The position numbers were made by a program, and so were the translations under genes. Below are positions 1,832 to 14,121 of a stretch of DNA of 64,000 nt, piece by piece. The notes beneath the pieces were generated by a model. That model had not been told where the DNA came from. It saw only the letters and a program-made list of their open reading frames with translations, and did not search any database. The stretch is from the NCBI RefSeq assembly GCF_053078305.1, contig NZ_CP166879.1; one strand, 5' to 3'. Each line of letters begins with the position of its first letter. Within the stretch, counting starts at the first letter, position 1.

Positions 1832-3571
1832 TCAGAAATCCCGGAACAGATTAAAACCGGCTGTCACATCACTCGTCATAAAACCCGCCGGCTTTGAAAA
1901 CGGACGACCGATGAAAACGTCATAATCCGTACTGAACAGTTGCCCCCTCAGCCCCACAACACCACCGGCCAGATGACGTCCCACCAGATATTCACTGCCG
2001 GCTCCCCCCACCTCGCCGTAATCCATTCCCAGATATAACGCCTGCTCCGGCAGTGGCGTACGCCAGGCCAGGTCGTTGCGGATATACCAGCCGTTACTGG
2101 CATTCAGCGTTCGCTCCCCGTCAAAACCACGAACCGTCCAGCGGTTACCGATGGCAAACTGTTCCTGTGGGGTCAGCGGGGTATTGCTCAGCTGGCGCTG
2201 ATACCGGAAGGAATAACTGAAGGGCTGCTCTGCCAGTGTAAAGGGCAGATTAAAGGATGCATTCATCTGCAGGATCTTACTGAGCGCCGTTGCCTCACCG
2301 AAGATTTCCTCCGGTGCCGGCTGTGCACCAAACCAGCGGGTTCCCCGTTGCCAGCTGACACCAGCATCCAGTGTGGCCTGAGAAATATAATGACGGTGCT
2401 GCAGCCCAAGTCGCCAGGCCGCTGTCTGCCGGCGCTGCACCTGGATTTCCGTATCATTAATGTAGTTACGCGACCTGCGGGCCTGAACATCGTAAGTCAG
2501 CACCGTTTTCTGCGTCCCGTTACGATGCAGTACCCGGCTCAGCTGCATGCCCAGATTCTGACTCTCGCCACTGTACTGGTAATCCTCAACCGCACCAGCT
2601 ACCGTCTGATGGTAATCGTAATCACTGGCGGTGACGGAAAACTGCCAGTAACCGAAAGGCACAGAGTAATGGGCCGTGTAGTTTTTACTGCCCTTACCCC
2701 CGTAATGTGGAAAATTATGGGTGGCAGAAACATACAGCAGGTCACTCAGGGAAAAAGGATTATCCAGAGAAAATGTTATACCACCGAGATAACGCCCTGT
2801 GCTGCGGGTACCTGAATCATCAAGCGAAAACCCCAGTCGCCAGTATTTATCCTGTTTACGGGTAATAAGAATATCACTTTCCCCTGGCTGCTCACCGGGC
2901 ACAATTTCCATATCAGCCTGCACACCCGGCAGTCGTTGCATATTCTCCAGCCCCTGCTCAATGTCCCGTAAATCCAGCAGAGAACCTTCGTGTGCCGGGA
3001 ATGAGGAATACAACTGAATATAGTCATCACTGTCCGGTGTCAGACGCACATGTCGCACAACACCGGGAATAATAACCAGCCGGAGGATACCGCTTTTTAA
3101 ATCCTGCGAAGGTGCCAGAACACGGGTGGTGACATAACCATGATCGACCAGACGGTTCTGCAATGTACTCATCAGCAGATTAATTCCTTTCGCCCCCAGG
3201 CAATGCCCGACCGCCCCGTTGGCGATTTTTTGTAAAGGCAGCCAGTGTGGTAACGCATCAGCCCCCTTCAGTTCCGTCTGTTTAATCTGAAAACAGGGCG
3301 TTTCAACAGGAAAATTAATCTTATGGGCAAAAGAGCCAGGTGCAGAAAGGCGAACATCAGGGGCTGAAGGCGTCAGTTGTTGCTCAAGGGCTTCCTGACG
3401 CTGCTGCTGAATGATAAATGTATCCTCTCCACTACGCCGGATATCCGCTGCCTGAAGAGATAAAGGCGATAGTAAAACAGACATCAGTGTCAGTGACAGC
3501 AAGGACGGACAGCGCCGGAATACGCTTTGTTCCTCAGCCCTCTCGTTCCTGCAACATAATTTTCCAGTCAA
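1832..3571 (-). CDS. cdiB: TpsB/CdiB outer-membrane two-partner secretion transporter (ShlB/FhaC family)
   Basis: 579 aa ORF with N-terminal signal peptide, POTRA-like region and C-terminal aromatic-rich beta-barrel ending in F; directly upstream of cdiC and cdiA in the same orientation. Exact start codon uncertain. Confidence 0.75.
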
Positions 3572-6291: not shown

Positions 6292-6858
6292 TTAAAAGTC
6301 ACTACACCCAAGATGACGTTCAACAGCACCATGCGATTCAATGTAAGCCCGGGCTGTCTGTTCCAGTACACCAGGCTCAGCGTTGTATGTGTTAGCTGCA
6401 TCAAATACCAACGACAACACTTCAGGATACACAACCAGATGTGTAATGGAGTTATCTTCACTCAATACTTTTCCCCACGCCTGCTCAATCAGATTTCTTA
6501 GAACCACCACCTCACGACTCTTACACCAGACATCGTTATTAAGTAGCAGCACCATAAGATAAGGAGTGGTATCGTTAGCCACAGCTTCCCTACTCCAGAG
6601 ATAATATAAAGGGGTGGGCTCAACAGATTTATCTTTACGTCTCTTGCACTGCAAATATTCAGAAATGAGTCTATGCAGTTCACCAGTAAAATCAGCCATC
6701 AGAGAGGGAATGGCCTTATTAATACCCTGCCCTGGTATTAATTTAAATTGTAATAATTTAATTTCAGGATGTGTAGCTGCAGCCCGATACAGAGTTGCAA
6801 GGACACACTTTTGCCAGAGGGCGTTACAGGAAAGCTTAACATTTGATTCTGTATACAT
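6292..6858 (-). CDS. YagK/YfjJ-family (inovirus Gp2-like, DUF3296) protein
   Basis: 188 aa; segments HPEIKLLQFKLIPG, LYYLWSREAV and YLMVLLLNNDVW resemble my recollection of E. coli YfjJ/YagK. Shorter than typical (about 280 aa), so possibly truncated. Confidence 0.5.
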   Translation of the reverse strand: MYTESNVKLSCNALWQKCVLATLYRAAATHPEIKLLQFKLIPGQGINKAIPSLMADFTGELHRLISEYLQCKRRKDKSVEPTPLYYLWSREAVANDTTPYLMVLLLNNDVWCKSREVVVLRNLIEQAWGKVLSEDNSITHLVVYPEVLSLVFDAANTYNAEPGVLEQTARAYIESHGAVERHLGCSDF

Positions 6859-7329
6859 AATAAATCACCTTACAGTTACAACAGGTCAAAAACCGCTGTA
6901 GCCAGAGTTACGCTGGCCTGATGCTTTAGTGTCGAGCTTCGTCAGATAATCCAGACGTGCCAATAAGCGCTGATACTGCTCAGGGAAATCAGGAGCATTA
7001 ATATCCTGGATGTCACGTCCATTAGCAGGGAAATGAACAATGCAGCCCCCTGGATTAACTATGCAGAAATCATCCTGAGGCACTGATAAATACGGAGAGG
7101 ACTCTCGCGTATGGTTGATTGACACCACAGTGCGAATTCGGCGAATGCGAGATCACGGTACGATTCCGCACCACACTACCAATCAATACCCCGGGTTTTA
7201 TTCAGGTAAGCAGGACTGCGGATATCCGGTGTCGCGCCTTTGTGTCACGAACGGGGTGGGTGCGAAACACCAGATAAAATACAGGTTGGCAATACCTCTG
7301 AACGCCCTGAGCAGGTCGGGCATTTCGGA

Positions 7330-7755
7330 TTAAGTACTCGCACCTCCGCAGTCCTCAAACAAGTCTGGCTGGTAGCTGTAAACAGACTTCGTACATACCG
7401 CTCTGCAATAAATCCCCGTACCACAGGCCTCACAGAACTTCTTCCCATGAAAAAACTGCTCACACATCACACAATGCCACTCCAGCACGACCGGTAATGG
7501 CGATAAAAACATCGCCATATCCTCAATGTAAGGGTGGGACTTCTCCGGATTCAGCACCACACAGTCCGCCTTCTGTTGCTCACTCAGGGCATGTAAATCA
7601 TGCTCAAACCACGCCCCCTGAGCATCTGTCTGCAGAATCAACCGGCCATGGCAGGAAAGGCAGAAACACTGCCGGATATTTCTGCTGAGCGCAGAGTCGG
7701 CACTGATAATGTGCTCACCCGGCGTGATCCCCAGCCCCGTTTTTATACCGTTCAT
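7330..7755 (-). CDS. Zinc-ribbon protein, paralog B (141 aa)
   Basis: Cys clusters CFCLSCHG and WHCVMCEQ...CEACGTG, plus WFEH and LPVV motifs shared with the upstream paralog; start overlaps the upstream stop by 4 nt (ATGA). Confidence 0.55.
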   Translation of the reverse strand: MNGIKTGLGITPGEHIISADSALSRNIRQCFCLSCHGRLILQTDAQGAWFEHDLHALSEQQKADCVVLNPEKSHPYIEDMAMFLSPLPVVLEWHCVMCEQFFHGKKFCEACGTGIYCRAVCTKSVYSYQPDLFEDCGGAST

Positions 7756-8135
7756 TCTGCTCCCCCCTCCTCACTGAAGCGCCCGGTCTGGCAGTGTGTG
7801 CAGTACTGCTCCCCATAATAATCGTGGTGACATTGCCTGCAGTGCCAGCTGGCTTTACGTACTACGGGTAAGGCATCCGGGACGAATTGCTGCAGACGTT
7901 TAATCAACCGTATTTCTCTGCGTTCCGGCCTGACATAAGGGCACTCATGACCGTGCTCCGTCAGCCCTTCGTCAGCGTGTTCAAACCAGGGCCGTTCAGT
8001 GTCGTATTGCGGGTGGTATCTGAGTGCACTGCCGCAAAGGTGGCAGGTGTAGCTATCGTAAGGTGCAGTCTGTGCGGTACGGGCACCGGTCAGACGTCCG
8101 TTGCCATCAAGTGCGAGAAAAGATTTTGCGTACAT
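7752..8135 (-). CDS. Zinc-ribbon protein, paralog A (127 aa)
   Basis: Cys clusters CHLCGS and WHCRQCHH...CTHCQTG with WFEH motif; GAGGAA ribosome-binding site upstream of ATG at 8135. Confidence 0.55.
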   Translation of the reverse strand: MYAKSFLALDGNGRLTGARTAQTAPYDSYTCHLCGSALRYHPQYDTERPWFEHADEGLTEHGHECPYVRPERREIRLIKRLQQFVPDALPVVRKASWHCRQCHHDYYGEQYCTHCQTGRFSEEGGAE

Positions 8136-8507
8136 AGTATATGTTCCTCAGCCGCCAGACGACACGCAGGCAACAGCCGTCCCGGTACGGGCAGCGTGGT
8201 CAGGGTGTGAATGGCGGTTCAGTTAAAATCTGGACTGGAGTTTGGGTAAAGCAGGCTGGTTGCTGTTACAGCACTGTGGTTGTCACACAATGGCCCACTG
8301 ACGTAAAAAACAGTCAGTAAGCAGAGATGGAGATTGGGGGATGTGCTGTATCGGTTGCCGGAAGGAATGGTAAAGAATGTGTCATGGTTAAATCTCCGTA
8401 TGGTTCATACGGAATGGCCACGCCGTAAAAAATGCGCAGAGCCGCTGAAGTGGCCGCCGGAACCGACAGCAAAGATTAGCGCCAGCCCGTACTTGTCGTT
8501 CAGGGGC

Positions 8508-9107
8508 TTACACCAGAGCACATATCCCCGGCAGGGGGCTGTCCAGTCGTGGTCGACCACGGTTACTTTTTTCAGGAAGCCCGCTGCATTTCAGGATGAT
8601 GCCACATTCTTTCTGTTCCCGTTTGGCCAGGTAGCTGATGGCATAGCGTAAATCATTCACCGCTTTGTGATCTGAATAGTGAATGACGTGGTTAATGTTT
8701 ACCGGATAATTTTTATTAAACCGGCACCAGTGGTAGTAACCATTACCATCGGTAACCCGCCTCCAGATATCTCCCATCAATCTGGATACCAGATACGAAC
8801 TCCTGTGGATCTGACCGTTCAGATAGCCCACAAAATGAATGTGAAGCCCTTTACGTTCTGTATATTCCATCACCCAGGCATACCCGACCAGTTTCTCTCC
8901 CACCTCGTTAATCAGTTGCAGCATCTCCGCGCACATGGCGTACCTGCAGGCGCATCCGTAGCTGAATGTGTTTTTTCGGTAAGCAAAATCCATTCTGAAC
9001 GGTAACAGCTTCGAATAGACCCCGAATAATGAATCCAGATGCTGGTTAAAGTGTGTCAGGAGCTGGGGAGCCATTTCGTAAGCGGGATTGGTGTTATAAG
9101 TTTGCAT
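8508..9107 (-). CDS. YagK/YfjJ-family (inovirus Gp2-like) protein, second paralog
   Basis: 199 aa; motifs YAWVMEYTERKGLHIHFVGYLNG resemble the conserved core of the YfjJ/YagK family; GAGGAA ribosome-binding site before ATG at 9107. Confidence 0.5.
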   Translation of the reverse strand: MQTYNTNPAYEMAPQLLTHFNQHLDSLFGVYSKLLPFRMDFAYRKNTFSYGCACRYAMCAEMLQLINEVGEKLVGYAWVMEYTERKGLHIHFVGYLNGQIHRSSYLVSRLMGDIWRRVTDGNGYYHWCRFNKNYPVNINHVIHYSDHKAVNDLRYAISYLAKREQKECGIILKCSGLPEKSNRGRPRLDSPLPGICALV

Positions 9108-9338
9108 GTTTCTTCCTCGTGTTCTGTAACACAGGAAGAAGCGCTGGCGTAATTTTTGAAGAAAACGTTATCACACGAAGACGTGCAAGTTCACAACTCC
9201 CCGGGCGCCACAGAGAAAGTGGGAGCACACCCGGGTATCAGAACCATACAGAGAACGGCATACGTGACTGTCAATCACAGCGCAGATAATATCTGATATG
9301 ATGTCATTGTGACGACTGTACTTCATCAGAAACATTTA

Positions 9339-9551
9339 TCAGGTAACATATTTCCAGACTGAAGCGGGAACACGATCGTAAAGTTTGTTCATGGTCAGTT
9401 CTGCCAGCCGGTGATCGACCGCAGAGTTGAAGGCTTCCATCTCCGCTGGAGTAAGCTTATAACGCGTGTGGGAAATCACTTTTTCCAGTGTCTCCCGGGA
9501 TGAACAACGACGGAACTGATACAGCCAGTCTTCTTTGGTCTTAACTTCCAT
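9339..9551 (-). CDS. Hha/YmoA-family modulator paralog (70 aa)
   Basis: C-terminal [22 protein letters not shown] is near-identical to the Hha signature as I recall it; start ATG at 9551 chosen inside the longer 117 aa ORF. Confidence 0.75.
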   Translation of the reverse strand: [70 protein letters not shown]

Positions 9552-9699
9552 TATCCTCTCGTTATTTTGTGCTGTGATTAACGTTAACATAATACCGTCA
9601 GAATAACGTATTCTGACGTCATCCCGGAAGTCTTTCCACTTTCCTGTCTCTCCGGTAATAAAACATTTTAAATGCTGAAGGCATAACGCCATAACCAGA

Positions 9700-10190
9700 T
9701 ATTACAAGTAACGTGGCGTTACACGTGTTAATGCATTACAGAAGTAACAGAGACAATCAGATAGTAAACAACACTCCGGAAGACTGTTTAATGGCATAGG
9801 TATACTTTTTACGATCACAATATTATATCACTACCAAAATTCATCAGGTGAACTGCAAAAGCAAAACATTAACAGTTCTCCCTCAACCACCGTTATCCAC
9901 ACTATTGACACTGACGATTCATACTCTTATTTAGCCAGAATAGCCTCCACACAACAGGCATTACTTAACAAAGTACATTACAGTCAGTGTGTGTACATGA
10001 CAGATTTATATTCAGGTGTTACGAGATTACATTACAGCAGAGAGAGTTAAGGACAGAGTTACAAGTACTACTACAGAGAATATCTCTGTACAGATACTTC
10101 TATGAGCATATCTTTATGAGAGATCCGTCTACAGGATTGGGTTACAAGGTGGAATTACAGAATTACAGGGTTCATTTACATAACCATACT
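9700..10190. repeat. AT-rich divergent intergenic region with about ten degenerate TTACA(G/A) repeats
   Basis: ATTACAG at about 9734, 9975, 10028, 10153, 10161; GTTACAAG at 10057 and 10141; related copies at 9710 and 9719; lies between the minus-strand block ending at hha and the plus-strand block starting at 10503. Confidence 0.6.
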
Positions 10191-10502
10191 TCTATAAATA
10201 ATACTAATTAACCTTAATTATTTTTTAATAGTACATGAACTGCCTGTAGCTGTAACGACAAATCACCCAAAATGAAAAATACTGGTTATCACGGTTCAGA
10301 GAACTCGTATAAGTACCTCCCCCCTGAGCAATGCTTCATTTTCTGTGGTTCTATGTGATAGAGTTATGCTGAGTACAGTGGCAGTAACCCTGCTTTCCAC
10401 CACTCAATGACAAAACACACAAAAAATTAATTATATGAATTAACAGTGTTTTTTATGGAATGTTATGCATATCAACCAATATGATTAACAGAAAACTTCA
10501 TC

Positions 10503-11294
10503 ATGACAACACGTATAACTTTCAATATGACCAGTGATGAGACGCTGCGAATTGTGGATGAGTACTGTCATACCCACAAACTTTCGCGCTCTAAGGTAAT
10601 CGACGCATTACTCAGCGCCACAGCACCTGTCCTTAACGATATTAACTGTTATTATCAACTTGCAGGCAAACTGCAGTCACGCTTATTAAATGGAGTGTAT
10701 CAACGGGATCTTCCTCACAAACGCAATGTCGTCAGTGCAGAGAAGTATTGTCTGGAAATCTGGGAAAACAAACTTTTCACCAAAAGAATCCTGGAGTTTG
10801 ACAGTTCAAATGGTGTTCTATACGCGCTGAAACATAAAAGACACTATCGCCGGGATAAGATGATTGGACGGGTTGAAAGCCGGCGTATCAAAGACATTTG
10901 CGAATACCAGATGCAACTGTCCGGGGAGAAGGCAAAATATGCCTGTTTTATTTATATTGAAAGAACAATATACAATCACGATAATCCATCCGGTGAAACA
11001 CCTGTAAAAGCGGCTGTTGGTAATGCAGTCATCCTGCTGGCAAAAGACGTGATATATGACGAGTACTTTTTTGATCTGCGGCAGTCATTTTTCGTGAGCG
11101 TTAAAGATTTGATGGCCTCTGGCGCAAAAGGTATTCCGGAGACACAGAAATATCCGGACGTTTATTGCTGGATCCCGCTTTTCTCCATAAATTCCGGCGT
11201 GGTCATTACCCCGGTCTATAAAATTGATCCCCGGAAACCCGTAACGGTAAAAAAACCGGATCAGATCACTGTTGTTTGTAATTACAGAGAATAA
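10503..11294 (+). CDS. Hypothetical protein with N-terminal ribbon-helix-helix-like domain (263 aa)
   Basis: N-terminus TRITFNMTSDETLRIVDEYCHTHKLSRSKVIDALL has a beta-strand plus two-helix RHH pattern; the remaining 220 aa is unrecognised. Confidence 0.5.
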   Translation: MTTRITFNMTSDETLRIVDEYCHTHKLSRSKVIDALLSATAPVLNDINCYYQLAGKLQSRLLNGVYQRDLPHKRNVVSAEKYCLEIWENKLFTKRILEFDSSNGVLYALKHKRHYRRDKMIGRVESRRIKDICEYQMQLSGEKAKYACFIYIERTIYNHDNPSGETPVKAAVGNAVILLAKDVIYDEYFFDLRQSFFVSVKDLMASGAKGIPETQKYPDVYCWIPLFSINSGVVITPVYKIDPRKPVTVKKPDQITVVCNYRE

Positions 11295-11676
11295 TTTCAG
11301 TCTTCTCCGTTCACCGCAACAGTGTTTACCTCTGCTTTATCTTCCTTTCAGTAAATACAAACCACAGCTCTGGCAGGTACAGGGCGTGGTTTATCTCCGA
11401 TACTCCCCTGCGCAGTAATAATCATCACTGAAAATACTGATTCCGTCACGGCAAAACGCCATCCCATATTCCGGCAACACAAAATCATCTTCCGTTTATA
11501 CCGGCTTCACTGACAAAACAGACAACCTGTATTGCCTGTACACAACAGTTTCTCTCCTGGCAGGAATATTCCTCAACTTTTTTACGTTTCTCCCCGGTTG
11601 TTATGCCGGTGAAGGTGGTGCGTCGTTTTCATCACCAACGCCGGTTGAGATTAACAACATCCGGAGGAACATTTTC

Positions 11677-11883
11677 ATGAAGACCCCAGTTTCGCTGATG
11701 GATGACCAGATGGTCGACATGGCGTTTATCACTCAACTGACCGGCTTAACCGATAAGTGGTTTTATAAGCTCATCAAAGATGGTGCCTTTCCGGCCCCCA
11801 TCAAACTCGGCCGCAGCTCCCGATGGCTGAAAAGTGAAGTGGAAGCCTGGTTGCAGGCGCGTATTGCACAATCCCGTCCGTAA
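11677..11883 (+). CDS. alpA: AlpA-family prophage transcriptional regulator
   Basis: 68 aa; helix-turn-helix segment FITQLTGLTDKWFYKLIKDGAFPAPIKLGRSSRWLKSEVEAWL typical of AlpA; GGAGG ribosome-binding site at 11664. Confidence 0.8.
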   Translation: MKTPVSLMDDQMVDMAFITQLTGLTDKWFYKLIKDGAFPAPIKLGRSSRWLKSEVEAWLQARIAQSRP

Positions 11884-11968
11884 TTACTGACCGTTATCCG
11901 TTCAACCGCAGCGAATACACTATCCGGCCTCCGGAGGCATTCTGCTGCGTGCTAAAGGAGAGAATATT

Positions 11969-12541
11969 ATGCAAAAACTTGAAAACCGGTGTGATCTGCT
12001 GCTAATTCAGCATCAGAAATGGATGGCAAGTGTAACCCGGTTTATTGTCGCTCATGGAATGGGCTCTCCGCATCTTCATGGTTATCACCGCCTGACCCTG
12101 GCTCACTTTTTTCTACCGGAAAAAGGCACCATCATCTCAGTGGCACCACAGGGACTCTATCAGGTCGTCAACCCGGGAACGCCACCGTTCATTCCTGCCA
12201 TTCAGGAAGGGTTAATGACCAGCATTCAGACCCATGAAATCATGCTGCTTACGCATTTTAATCTGGGCGGCGTTTTACTCAGTGAGCTACATCGTCTGGG
12301 CGAAAGCCGGCTGGCAAACAGGCTGAACAGTCTGCTCCGGCGTTTCGAAGATCGCGATCTCTACCACACGCTGATATGGCTGTGCTGGTATGATCTGATG
12401 TGTGCCCACTCCATGCAGCCCTGGACTGAAGAGTTAAAGCATAAATCACACACAGAGCTTGAAAGCTGGGCTGTGGCGCGCAAACGGGAAAAGCGCGAGC
12501 TTGAACTGATGATTGACGAGTATCTGTTATACGCCTGTTGA
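11969..12541 (+). CDS. Hypothetical protein (190 aa)
   Basis: ORF with AAAGGAG ribosome-binding site immediately downstream of alpA; no family recognised. Confidence 0.45.
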   Translation: MQKLENRCDLLLIQHQKWMASVTRFIVAHGMGSPHLHGYHRLTLAHFFLPEKGTIISVAPQGLYQVVNPGTPPFIPAIQEGLMTSIQTHEIMLLTHFNLGGVLLSELHRLGESRLANRLNSLLRRFEDRDLYHTLIWLCWYDLMCAHSMQPWTEELKHKSHTELESWAVARKREKRELELMIDEYLLYAC

Positions 12542-14121
12542 TTCATAACGCTCCCGGGATTCCTTCCTCATCGTTGCACACAACCGGACGGCTATCTGTG
12601 GCAGTCCGCCAAATGACCCTCGCCGCATTTCGTTCTGCTGAAAACGGTACGTAGCCAGTGATACCGGAATTTCCGGAGAGGGTCGCAGGTATATTGCTTC
12701 TGTGCAATTGATGCTTATTTACATTGGATGTGGTTATTTCTGCATCCAATGCTATCGGAAAGAGATCAACCAGCAAATGGTTCCTCAAATCGTATTGATA
12801 TTTACCCGGTGCATTGAGCACCTCCATCTGACACTCCGTTCCCGCATCAAACGGCTGAACCGGAAAACGATTTGCTTTTCACGCTCCGTGGAAATTCACG
12901 AAAAAGTTATTGGGTCATTCATCGAAAAACACATGTTCTGCTGACTGGAGCCATCACCCGGAAATATACGTCAACTGAACAATAACGATTTTTTCTTTAT
13001 GGGATCCCATACACTTTCCCATACCCCTCTGAAAATCAGTCATCAACTCACCAACACATCTTCTGAAATCTGTATTAAACTTATTGCTTAAATAGATGAT
13101 ATAACACATCTTCCATTGCACGGAATCAGCGAAAACTGTCATTCTGGCAATCTTAACAAGATCATTTATCGGTTAATTTTATCAGTAAACAATGGAATAT
13201 CACACTGATAAAATGAACATTCAGGGTAAGATGATAAAATTCACATAAAAAATGCTGAAGATTATTTATTTCATGCAGATAAACGATAAAATACAAGAGA
13301 GTATATTTTTCAGTGTAAGAGTCAATCGTTCATCTCCACTGACGATCACGGTCAGCACATAAACAAAGTGAGTCCTCCTGCTTAGTCATTGCGTATCAGA
13401 AACTAAAAAACAAAAGATTCTGTAAACAACGTGACATTTTTTATGACATTTCCCGAATACAGATATATCAACAAACAGTAGTCAGCGTTGAATTAATAAG
13501 TTTTACAGGGCTATACGTATCTTATAAAACCACTCAACGACCATCATCACCTGACTATTTAGCGGGAGTATCATCTGTATAAATCCCTAAATAATAACAC
13601 CTGTTATTAAAATAAGAATGCTGTCAGCAGTAAATTATTAACATAACACCTGTCCACTCTATCTGTTCTTCTAACTCAACCGGCATCGAAAATATTGCCT
13701 GATTAGTGCATCATAGCCTTCTTTTTTCTTTCCCGACCATCAAAACAAATACAACATTTACAACCACACAATAAAACAAAACTAAAACATAAGATTAACA
13801 ACACCAATCAACAGGAAAACACTGAATATTGAGGTGCCCTGTAACCTGGAGAGCGCATACGGCGCATGTGATCAACACAGCCCATTCTTTTCTGTCATCC
13901 CCCAAATGCAGAACAAACAAGCATAACCTAATGAATATAAAATAAAATATTATTTTTCACCATCATAAAAACATCAATGTATCTTTATATAAAAACACTG
14001 ACAACATGACATAAACATTTAAAAACATAAACAAATCACAACAAAAACATTTGATAATCACTTAGTGACAAAATAAAATTGAGACGATTTTGTTATAAGA
14101 GAGGCGCCATGGAGTGAGATA

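Follow-up and report, generated by a model that had tools for sequence, protein, structure and literature searches.

Why does one short word, TTACA, recur on a single strand of the DNA between two divergent genes of an Escherichia coli (E. coli) island? The DNA analysed here, called the window, is a stretch of 64,000 nucleotides from contig NZ_CP166879.1 (NCBI RefSeq assembly GCF_053078305.1). The words lie in the spacer [9551-10502] that separates a paralogue of hha, on the minus strand, from a yagM-like gene, on the plus strand. A first-pass annotation, made from the letters alone, described an iteron-like array of TTACA(G/A) repeats in a divergent non-coding region of 0.8 kb, and proposed a multimeric binding site for a regulator, an origin-like set of iterons or a structured non-coding RNA. 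The non-coding region is real. Its size of 0.8 kb stemmed from a longer open reading frame (ORF) [9339-9692], and with the annotated hha start at 9551 the spacer measures 951 bp. Here, the observation is confirmed and it is stronger than is visible from the window sequence alone. Comparison of alleles indicates that the array is a hypervariable 13-bp variable-number tandem repeat (VNTR), which lies in the control region of a widespread family of islands and abuts a conserved, predicted promoter-like element.

The word TTACA is found 11 times on the plus strand of the spacer and once on the minus strand. The plus-strand copies start at positions 9702, 9719, 9736, 9978, 10027, 10032, 10059, 10142, 10155, 10163 and 10176. 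As had been counted before, ATTACAG is present five times (9735, 9977, 10031, 10154 and 10162), GTTACAAG twice (10058 and 10141) and ATTACAAG once (9701). Significance was evaluated with dinucleotide shuffles of the spacer, 5000 for each word, and these bear out the claim that the enrichment is above chance. For TTACA, 3.4 ± 1.8 copies are expected and 11 or more were reached in 4 of 5000 shuffles. The more specific words [GA]TTACA[GA] (8 observed, 0.8 expected) and ATTACAG (5 observed, 0.2 expected) did not reach the observed number in any of 5000 shuffles. After correction for the post hoc choice of the word, in which the commonest k-mer of any sequence was considered, 11 to 13 of 2000 shuffles matched the spacer for k = 5, 6 and 7 (about 0.006). 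The 500-bp segment that begins at 9701 contains 11 copies of TTACA, while the next densest 500 bp elsewhere in the 64 kb contains 4.

The organization of these words was determined by comparing alleles. Ten alleles from complete genomes were aligned (alignment A1), and 44 further copies were taken from metagenomes using as a probe the invariant sequence just downstream of the array, for 55 sequences in all. In alignment A1, segment [10141-10180] of the window corresponds to the short form of a true tandem repeat. For an O111 strain, Tandem Repeats Finder gave a 25-bp period with 5.3 copies (96%), and for another strain a 13/26-bp period. The array is far plainer in such alleles than in the window; 'iteron-like array' was therefore a fair description of its form. 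There are 22 distinct arrays among the 55 sequences, with 0 to 13 units each. The units are spaced by 13 bp in 102 of 120 intervals and have the consensus TTACA-N-GGT-A-N-A-W. Positions 1-5, 7-9 and 12 of the unit are nearly invariant, the invariance of positions 1-5 being biased by the way the units were delimited and that of positions 7-9 and 12 being unbiased; positions 6, 10, 11 and 13 are variable. The array is kept in 54 of the 55 alleles, across lineages whose flanks have diverged by about 20%.

Alleles with identical flanks differ in length by +13, +26 or +65 bp. The lineage of the window slips an 8-bp unit, GAATTACA, instead, again between identical flanks: one copy is present in allele L025, two in the window and in L001, L002, L020 and L051, three in L022, and four in L040 and L052. 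Such length steps between identical flanks are the expected signature of ongoing slipped-strand mispairing, and whole-unit differences in copy number between close relatives are one hallmark of a promoter-proximal VNTR. In the window, the core of the array [10141-10180, plus strand] is a contracted allele with units at 10142 (TTACAAGGTGGAA), 10155 (TTACAGAA, the 8-bp slip unit), 10163 (TTACAGGGTTCAT) and 10176 (the terminal TTACA). This allele is minimal, as it has four units and one promoter-like site. In the best reading of these data, the TTACA words represent the relics of a 13-bp tandem repeat prone to slippage, together with its active core, and the window contains a contracted local allele of this repeat. 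A coding repeat was rejected; 13 bp is not a multiple of 3, and a 74-aa ORF [9987-10211] crosses the variable array.

The last unit of the array is part of the best sigma-70-like site of the spacer [10175-10202, plus strand]. This site was found by a scan with a loose consensus, which yields predictions only. It consists of TTTACA (-35-like) and AATAAT (-10-like) separated by 16 bp, with 10 of 12 matches, and it is directed toward the yagM-like gene. Its -35-like hexamer is the last repeat unit itself, which reads TTTACA or ATTACA among the alleles. The distance from this terminal unit to a conserved block downstream (TAAATAATA... or CTAATTAACC) is constant in 21 of the 22 alleles, and part of the block (TAAT[AT]ATACTAA..AACC) can be recognised by eye in other genera. 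The 13-bp period of the commonest alleles sets a -10-like hexamer, TAGAAT or TACAAT, exactly 16 bp after each -35-like xTTACA. The scan of allele L005 gave six co-directional sites at 13-bp steps, and eight sites in all compared with 3.1 ± 1.8 in shuffles. With the scan criteria re-implemented for all 22 alleles, each allele has 0 to 7 plus-strand sites, at least one being present in 21 of them, and there is one minus-strand site in total. The plus-strand sites all point to the YagM-family gene, which encodes a ribbon-helix-helix (RHH) type protein, and to alpA. Random tandem 13-mers of equal composition produce such a site in only 1.7% of trials. Neither this promoter-like geometry nor the hypervariable copy number was part of the first-pass annotation.

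Based on these observations, we tentatively favour a reading in which the array is a slippage-prone, promoter-associated cis element, made of stacked promoter modules or protein sites. Within the regulatory spacer of a CP4-6/CP4-57-type island, the repeat would make up the upstream portion of a promoter region, the one that bears the -35. Each unit would carry a -35-like hexamer (A/T/G-TTACA) and, together with its neighbours, a -10-like TAGAAT or TACAAT exactly 16 bp downstream, such that a run of units would form a stack of co-directional sigma-70-like modules, at steps of 13 bp, toward the YagM-family RHH gene and the alpA-like gene. Fixed in position, the last unit would provide the -35 of the terminal site [10175-10202]. 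Slipped-strand mispairing would add or remove units, by 13 or 26 bp, or by 8 bp in the lineage of the window. This would change the number of upstream modules that bind RNA polymerase or another protein and would leave the terminal promoter undisturbed. The outcome would be a heritable, reversible shift in the output or in the silencing of the control region. In a further reading, less radical than the origin discussed below, the copy number of the repeat would act as a heritable switch for the level of the YagM/AlpA module, and hence for the excision of the island. That RNA polymerase or another protein uses any of these sites, and that copy number matters for expression, we infer from the DNA sequence.

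Several points weigh against this proposal. In the region of the window, 5 promoter-like sites were found compared with 5.0 in shuffles, which is no excess. With equal criteria, the O111 allele has only two sites for its 12 units, and the allele of the window has one. An A at position 2 of the -10-like hexamer is present in only 14 of 21 unit types. The geometry test was devised after the pattern had been seen and it involves few independent unit types, so its result is suggestive only. The 13-bp period is off the helical repeat, and cooperative binding along one face of the DNA is therefore not expected. The array is absent from related loci of other genera, and thus it is not essential to the YagM/AlpA module. 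Finally, another element [10459-10492], near the start codon of the yagM-like gene and described below, could be the real promoter or operator of that gene.

The main rival to a promoter-associated element is a neutral minisatellite, that is, a functionless product of slippage tolerated in an AT-rich, probably H-NS-silenced spacer. Conservation of the motif would then reflect recent copying of a few ancestral units, and the promoter geometry would be an accident of AT-rich sequence. We regard this account as possible, if somewhat less likely than the promoter-associated element. It agrees with the range of copy number, 0 to 13, with the complete lack of the array in allele L019, and with the non-helical period and the absence from other genera just mentioned. 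The older dispersed TTACA copies [9955-10083] were tested for extra conservation and are no better conserved than their flanks, and in the lineage of the window the expanded sub-unit is another one, of 8 bp, which interrupts the 13-bp pattern. A neutral origin fits less well with an array that is retained in all alleles but one despite the divergence of the flanks. Changes also favour certain positions of the unit: 4 positions account for at least 10 independent changes, and the other 9 for at least 8 (our own count; binomial p about 0.03). Moreover, the last unit has a fixed junction to a conserved element, and the promoter-like sites are one-stranded, bar a single site, with a geometry that random tandem repeats seldom match.

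The genes around the spacer suggest other functions for the repeats. The hha paralogue [9339-9551, minus strand] encodes 70 aa and was assigned by NF008191 (105.8 bits, for a cut-off of 90) and by annotation; it is divergent from the yagM-like gene. The latter [10503-11294, plus strand] encodes a YagM-family protein of 263 aa (PF27701, UCP007319), with an N-terminal RHH-like domain and a C-terminal domain of unknown fold, and is labelled 'YagM family protein' in some RefSeq records. The YagM-like protein had no match in searches by sequence of Pfam and of solved structures, nor in a Foldseek search against the PDB. Further downstream is a gene for an AlpA/excisionase-type helix-turn-helix protein [11677-11883, plus strand], identified by TIGR01764 below its cut-off, by annotation and by the Pfam family Phage_AlpA on its orthologues.

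One of these island proteins, the YagM-family RHH protein, the AlpA-like excisionase-type protein or another, could bind the array as an operator or iteron set. The protein would recognise each 13-bp unit as one site and, by binding cooperatively, would repress or activate the promoter. RHH proteins such as omega, ParG, ParR, MetJ and CopG, as well as Cox/Apl/Xis-type proteins, bind runs of short direct repeats that overlap promoters. The array is such a run, an RHH-type gene lies directly downstream of it, the conserved TTACA-N-GGT block spans 9 bp, and the array overlaps the predicted -35. However, the spacing of 13 bp is unusual for these families (7-11 bp), and the full 12-nt motif does not occur anywhere else in the window, for example upstream of alpA. 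For the RHH protein in particular, the comparison with distant relatives given below is unfavourable. Overall, we consider an operator of this kind unlikely. Consensus half-sites of host factors were also compared with the array and rejected: TyrR (TGTAAA-N6-TTTACA), OmpR, RstA (TACA-N6-TACA) and CpxR (GTAAA-N5-GTAAA) have TTACA-like words, but their 10-11-bp spacing or dyad symmetry is not found here.

A search for related loci with a narrow alignment gave 6 loci. The distant relatives compared here come from Citrobacter, Klebsiella oxytoca, Hafnia, Cedecea, Enterobacter and Pectobacterium, with a protein identity of 52-56%. At these loci, hha and the TTACA array are both missing, and the YagK/YfjJ-type and YagM-type genes are direct divergent neighbours, about 390 bp apart. 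The arrangement suggests that YagK/YfjJ is the ancestral divergent neighbour of the yagM-like gene and that hha now intervenes in E. coli. Only two parts of the spacer appear to be common to E. coli and the distant loci. The first one, TAAATAATACTAATTAACC [10196-10213, plus strand], corresponds to TTAATTATACTAAAAACCC in other genera and was found by eye; the MAFFT alignment A4 did not place the element there. Its sequence is the same in all of the Citrobacter, Klebsiella, Hafnia, Cedecea, Enterobacter and Pectobacterium loci, and the flanks around it diverge. It is possibly a -10/start region (TATACT), a promoter core or another protein site. The second part [10459-10492, plus strand] is located just before the start codon, has the forms GTTATGCA...ATATGATTAACA, GTTATGCA...ATGATTAAC and GTTATGCATATCAACCAATATGATTAACA, and is aligned in A4 to the distant relatives.

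The strand residues of the RHH domain that are predicted to read DNA (R4, T6 and N/S8) are unchanged in the distant relatives. Because these relatives have the same predicted reading residues and lack the array, sharing in their upstream DNA only GTTATGCA...ATGATTAAC and the TATACT element, the earlier proposal that the downstream RHH protein binds the repeats is disfavoured. For the same reason, the RHH protein would more plausibly have its own operator in the proximal element [10459-10492] than in the E. coli-specific array. A non-coding stretch [10203-10502, plus strand], which includes the second element, is conserved at 85-96% across the alleles, as is its part [10203-10440], above the coding sequence of hha (54-91%), with values near 10204-10240 inflated by the recruitment of alleles with a probe located there. 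The stretch is a leader to the yagM-like gene or else an element of its own. Folding of [10208-10502] gave no stability signal (z = -0.68). No conserved small ORF was found in [10203-10502]; the ATG of a 28-aa ORF, at 10272, is ACG in most alleles.

The ancestral neighbour raises the question of an origin. The YagK/YfjJ protein ('inovirus-type Gp2') [8508-9107, minus strand] resembles HUH endonucleases, the rolling-circle and relaxase enzymes, and has the motifs HxH (LHIHF) and YxxK (YLAK). Its matches to PF11726 and PF23343 (REP_ORF2-G2P) are weak, with E about 2e-4, and HxH and YxxK are retained in 5 of 6 homologues. A second YagK/YfjJ paralogue [6292-6858, minus strand] has lost both motifs. 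Zinc-ribbon genes are also present upstream on the minus strand, beside YagK/YfjJ. The spacer contains one perfect DnaA box, TTATCCACA [9893-9901, plus strand], which stands 240 bp from the array and is conserved in 9 of 10 aligned alleles; two such boxes were found in the 64 kb, for 0.49 expected. An AT-rich block is located at [10195-10235].

In a rolling-circle origin of replication or transfer, the HUH-like YagK/YfjJ would bind the repeats, the RHH protein would be a regulator or accessory factor, and the nearby, deeply conserved element would be the nick region. We view this as improbable, and we give the same small chance to its wider form, in which a very common group of 'cryptic' E. 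coli islands would have in this spacer its origin of replication or transfer, with YagK/YfjJ nicking near the repeats that it binds and AlpA as the trigger. The REP_ORF2-G2P match with its retained motifs, the divergent HUH-like and RHH genes directly around the spacer in other genera, the perfect conserved DnaA box, the AT-rich block and a 41-kb circular record made of such an island (see below) are all in keeping with an origin. On the other side, the Pfam matches are weak, the repeats are missing from other genera with the same gene pair, and their copy number varies. A conserved hairpin that could hold a nick site was not identified, the literature searched gave no evidence of replication or transfer, and hha separates the HUH-like gene from the spacer in E. 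coli. As for the origin-like iterons proposed earlier, the 13-bp period, the variable copy number and the lack of a Rep_3-type initiator speak against them; with an HUH-like ancestral neighbour, the idea keeps a small chance.

The repeats could also act in transcribed form, either by folding into a structured non-coding RNA or by titrating an RNA-binding protein as a sponge, given a likeness to the CsrA-type ACA-R-GGA. The strict strand bias, the units that read ACAGGAUC or ACAAGGUA and the high conservation of the flanking non-coding DNA would suit an element of this type. However, no Rfam match was found at E ≤ 1 in the segment scanned [7000-13500], and the repeat region [9955-10210] folds worse than 199 of 200 shuffles (z = +1.94), while the conserved 3' part has the z of -0.68 given above. 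In addition, no convincing terminator was found and, in the window, the best promoter-like site is downstream of the array. An RNA-level element is thus very improbable, and a structured RNA, as proposed in the first-pass annotation, is unlikely. Of that interpretation, which is partly borne out, the enrichment and the array-like form stand, the enrichment being strand-specific and conserved in related islands. A CsrA/CsrB-type sponge was considered separately and rejected; the conserved parts of the unit are TTACA and GGT, GGA is present only in some units, and the region is unstructured.

Outside the core of the array, the spacer has other repeats. Two degenerate units of about 54 bp, [9964-10017] and [10018-10071] on the plus strand, comprise the repeat families D1, D2 and D5, with a spacing of 53-54 bp. 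Each of them opens with an old double unit, TTAACAAAGTACA-TTACAG at 9965 and TTACGAGATTACA-TTACAG at 10019, and a single GTTACAAG is found within the block at 10058. The block [9964-10071] is 88-97% conserved across 35 distinct alleles. Further upstream, three TTACA copies are placed 17 bp apart (9702, 9719 and 9736; segment [9701-9742], plus strand). These are mostly restricted to the lineage of the window in alignment A1. In five alleles of 80% identity, the copies at 9702 and 9736 are altered (ATTGCAAT and ACTACATG) and that at 9719 is deleted; L003 and L009 keep the copy at 9719. The three copies are probably outside the functional core. The array is bracketed by 10-bp direct repeats, ATACTTCTAT, at [10094-10103] and [10186-10195] on the plus strand. 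In L019, a deletion between these repeats has removed the whole array together with the -35-like unit, leaving a 43-bp allele that is a ready-made natural null.

Two further features of the spacer were recorded. A perfect palindrome with 10-bp arms (CGTCAGAATA and TATTCTGACG) is located at [9596-9618], 45-67 bp upstream of the hha start. By score it is terminator-like on the minus strand, and its outer stem (CGTCA/TGACG) is retained around a different loop in other alleles. A second, A-rich tandem repeat, AAAATAACAGA, with a period of 11-12 and about 3.4 copies, is present in most other alleles and not in the window; in L007 it occupies [3399-3434], which corresponds to a position near 9940 of the window.

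Downstream, the set of genes around the spacer continues with a GTPase gene and with Ag43, antirestriction, RadC and YeeU/CbtA genes; taken together, these genes make up the backbone found in E. coli islands of the CP4-6/CP4-44/CP4-57 type. The first-pass annotation had named conservation in related islands as a check. A 953-bp query of the spacer was matched in 751 of 5426 complete E. coli genomes (about 14%), 561 of them with a coverage of at least 80%. The matches, in 829 places overall and in up to four per genome, are chromosomal in every case, and the GC content is 33-37%. No homology to phages was found, and two 'plasmid' matches are a 1-Mb record and a 41-kb island-like circle. The latter, CP088535.1 (L061), consists of one such island, with an integrase at one end, the YeeU/CbtA module at the other end and the spacer inside; it could be an excised island or an assembly artefact. 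Contig JAIJJM010000108.1 (L062), labelled as a Collinsella metagenome-assembled genome, contains an E. coli-type spacer and a yagM-like gene that is 93% identical, and its label is almost certainly due to binning contamination. The hha paralogue, intact with 70 aa in the window, is annotated as a truncated Hha/YmoA protein of 49 aa in the lineages with 80% spacer identity (L004-L008, locus position 2816-2965) and is missing in the O111 allele (L009). No hha/yagM-like module was found in SpLE1 of E. coli O157 Sakai (1395-1445 kb), and a literature search on yagM, yagK and hha gave no description of this spacer.

The order of the island backbone is YagK/YfjJ, the hha paralogue, YagM-like and AlpA, followed by Ag43 and YeeU/CbtA. 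If functional, a hypervariable repeat at this regulatory hub would be a simple route to differences in island expression or excision, from strain to strain or from cell to cell, in islands that carry adhesins and toxin-antitoxin genes. An origin, if that reading were true, would make these islands rolling-circle or mobilisable elements and not dead prophage remnants, which would change the view of 'cryptic prophages'. If neutral, the array is a curiosity and nothing more. The locus is also a typing marker yet to be exploited, given 22 alleles among the 55 sequences.

The array can be compared with several known systems. The iterons of theta plasmids (pSC101, F, R6K and P1) are 17-22 bp long, with a spacing of about 22 bp and a conserved number, and they are served by a Rep_3-type winged-helix initiator. 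As in these origins, direct repeats, a predicted DnaA box and an AT-rich stretch are found here in one non-coding region upstream of the gene of a DNA-binding protein. However, the unit is 13 bp (8 bp in the lineage of the window), there are 0 to 13 copies, and the adjacent protein has an RHH and an unknown domain in place of Rep_3. The double-strand origin of the pMV158 family combines the HUH initiator RepB, the RHH repressor CopG and three 11-bp iterons. The spacer is similar in having an HUH-like gene, an RHH gene and direct repeats in the control region between them. In contrast to that origin, no hairpin for nicking was identified, YagK/YfjJ is only weakly assigned as HUH, the gene pair occurs elsewhere without the repeats, and the island is chromosomal. 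Arrays bound by RHH proteins include the omega heptads of pSM19035, the ParG boxes of TP228, the 11-bp ParR/parC iterons of R1 and the 8-bp metboxes of MetJ. Short direct repeats over a predicted promoter, beside an RHH gene, are common to these operators or centromeres and to the present array, which is set apart by its 13-bp spacing, its hypervariable copy number and the relatives that have the same predicted reading residues and no array.

Closer parallels are found in contingency loci, such as the 7-bp repeats upstream of hmw1A and hmw2A of Haemophilus influenzae and the TAAA repeats upstream of nadA of Neisseria meningitidis. In both cases a short non-coding tandem repeat lies by a promoter, here a predicted one, and close relatives differ by whole units through slippage. 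Unlike in those loci, the unit here has 13 bp and itself resembles promoter hexamers, and the host is E. coli. Control by repeats of this sort has, to our knowledge, no established place in E. coli. The second parallel is with promoter islands, which are acquired, AT-rich segments of E. coli DNA in which sigma-70-like sites overlap and are abnormally dense (Panyukov and Ozoline 2013, PMC3661553; Purtov et al. 2020, PMC7054387). They have been proposed to bind RNA polymerase and H-NS and to be poorly productive (PMC3661553, PMC7054387). A repeat structure was not found mentioned in the one promoter-island paper searched, and the islands are described as irregular. In its common alleles, the spacer resembles them by dense predicted sigma-70-like sites within AT-rich acquired DNA, and an hha paralogue adjoins the array. 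Common alleles have 6-7 promoter-like sites in about 100 bp, a density like that of promoter islands, of which the window's allele, with one site, falls short. The density here differs in that it arises from a regular, one-strand 13-bp repeat and varies between strains. On the favoured reading of a promoter-associated slippage element, the array would have ties to two known kinds of element, the contingency repeats that lie near promoters and the promoter islands found in acquired DNA (PMC3661553, PMC7054387).

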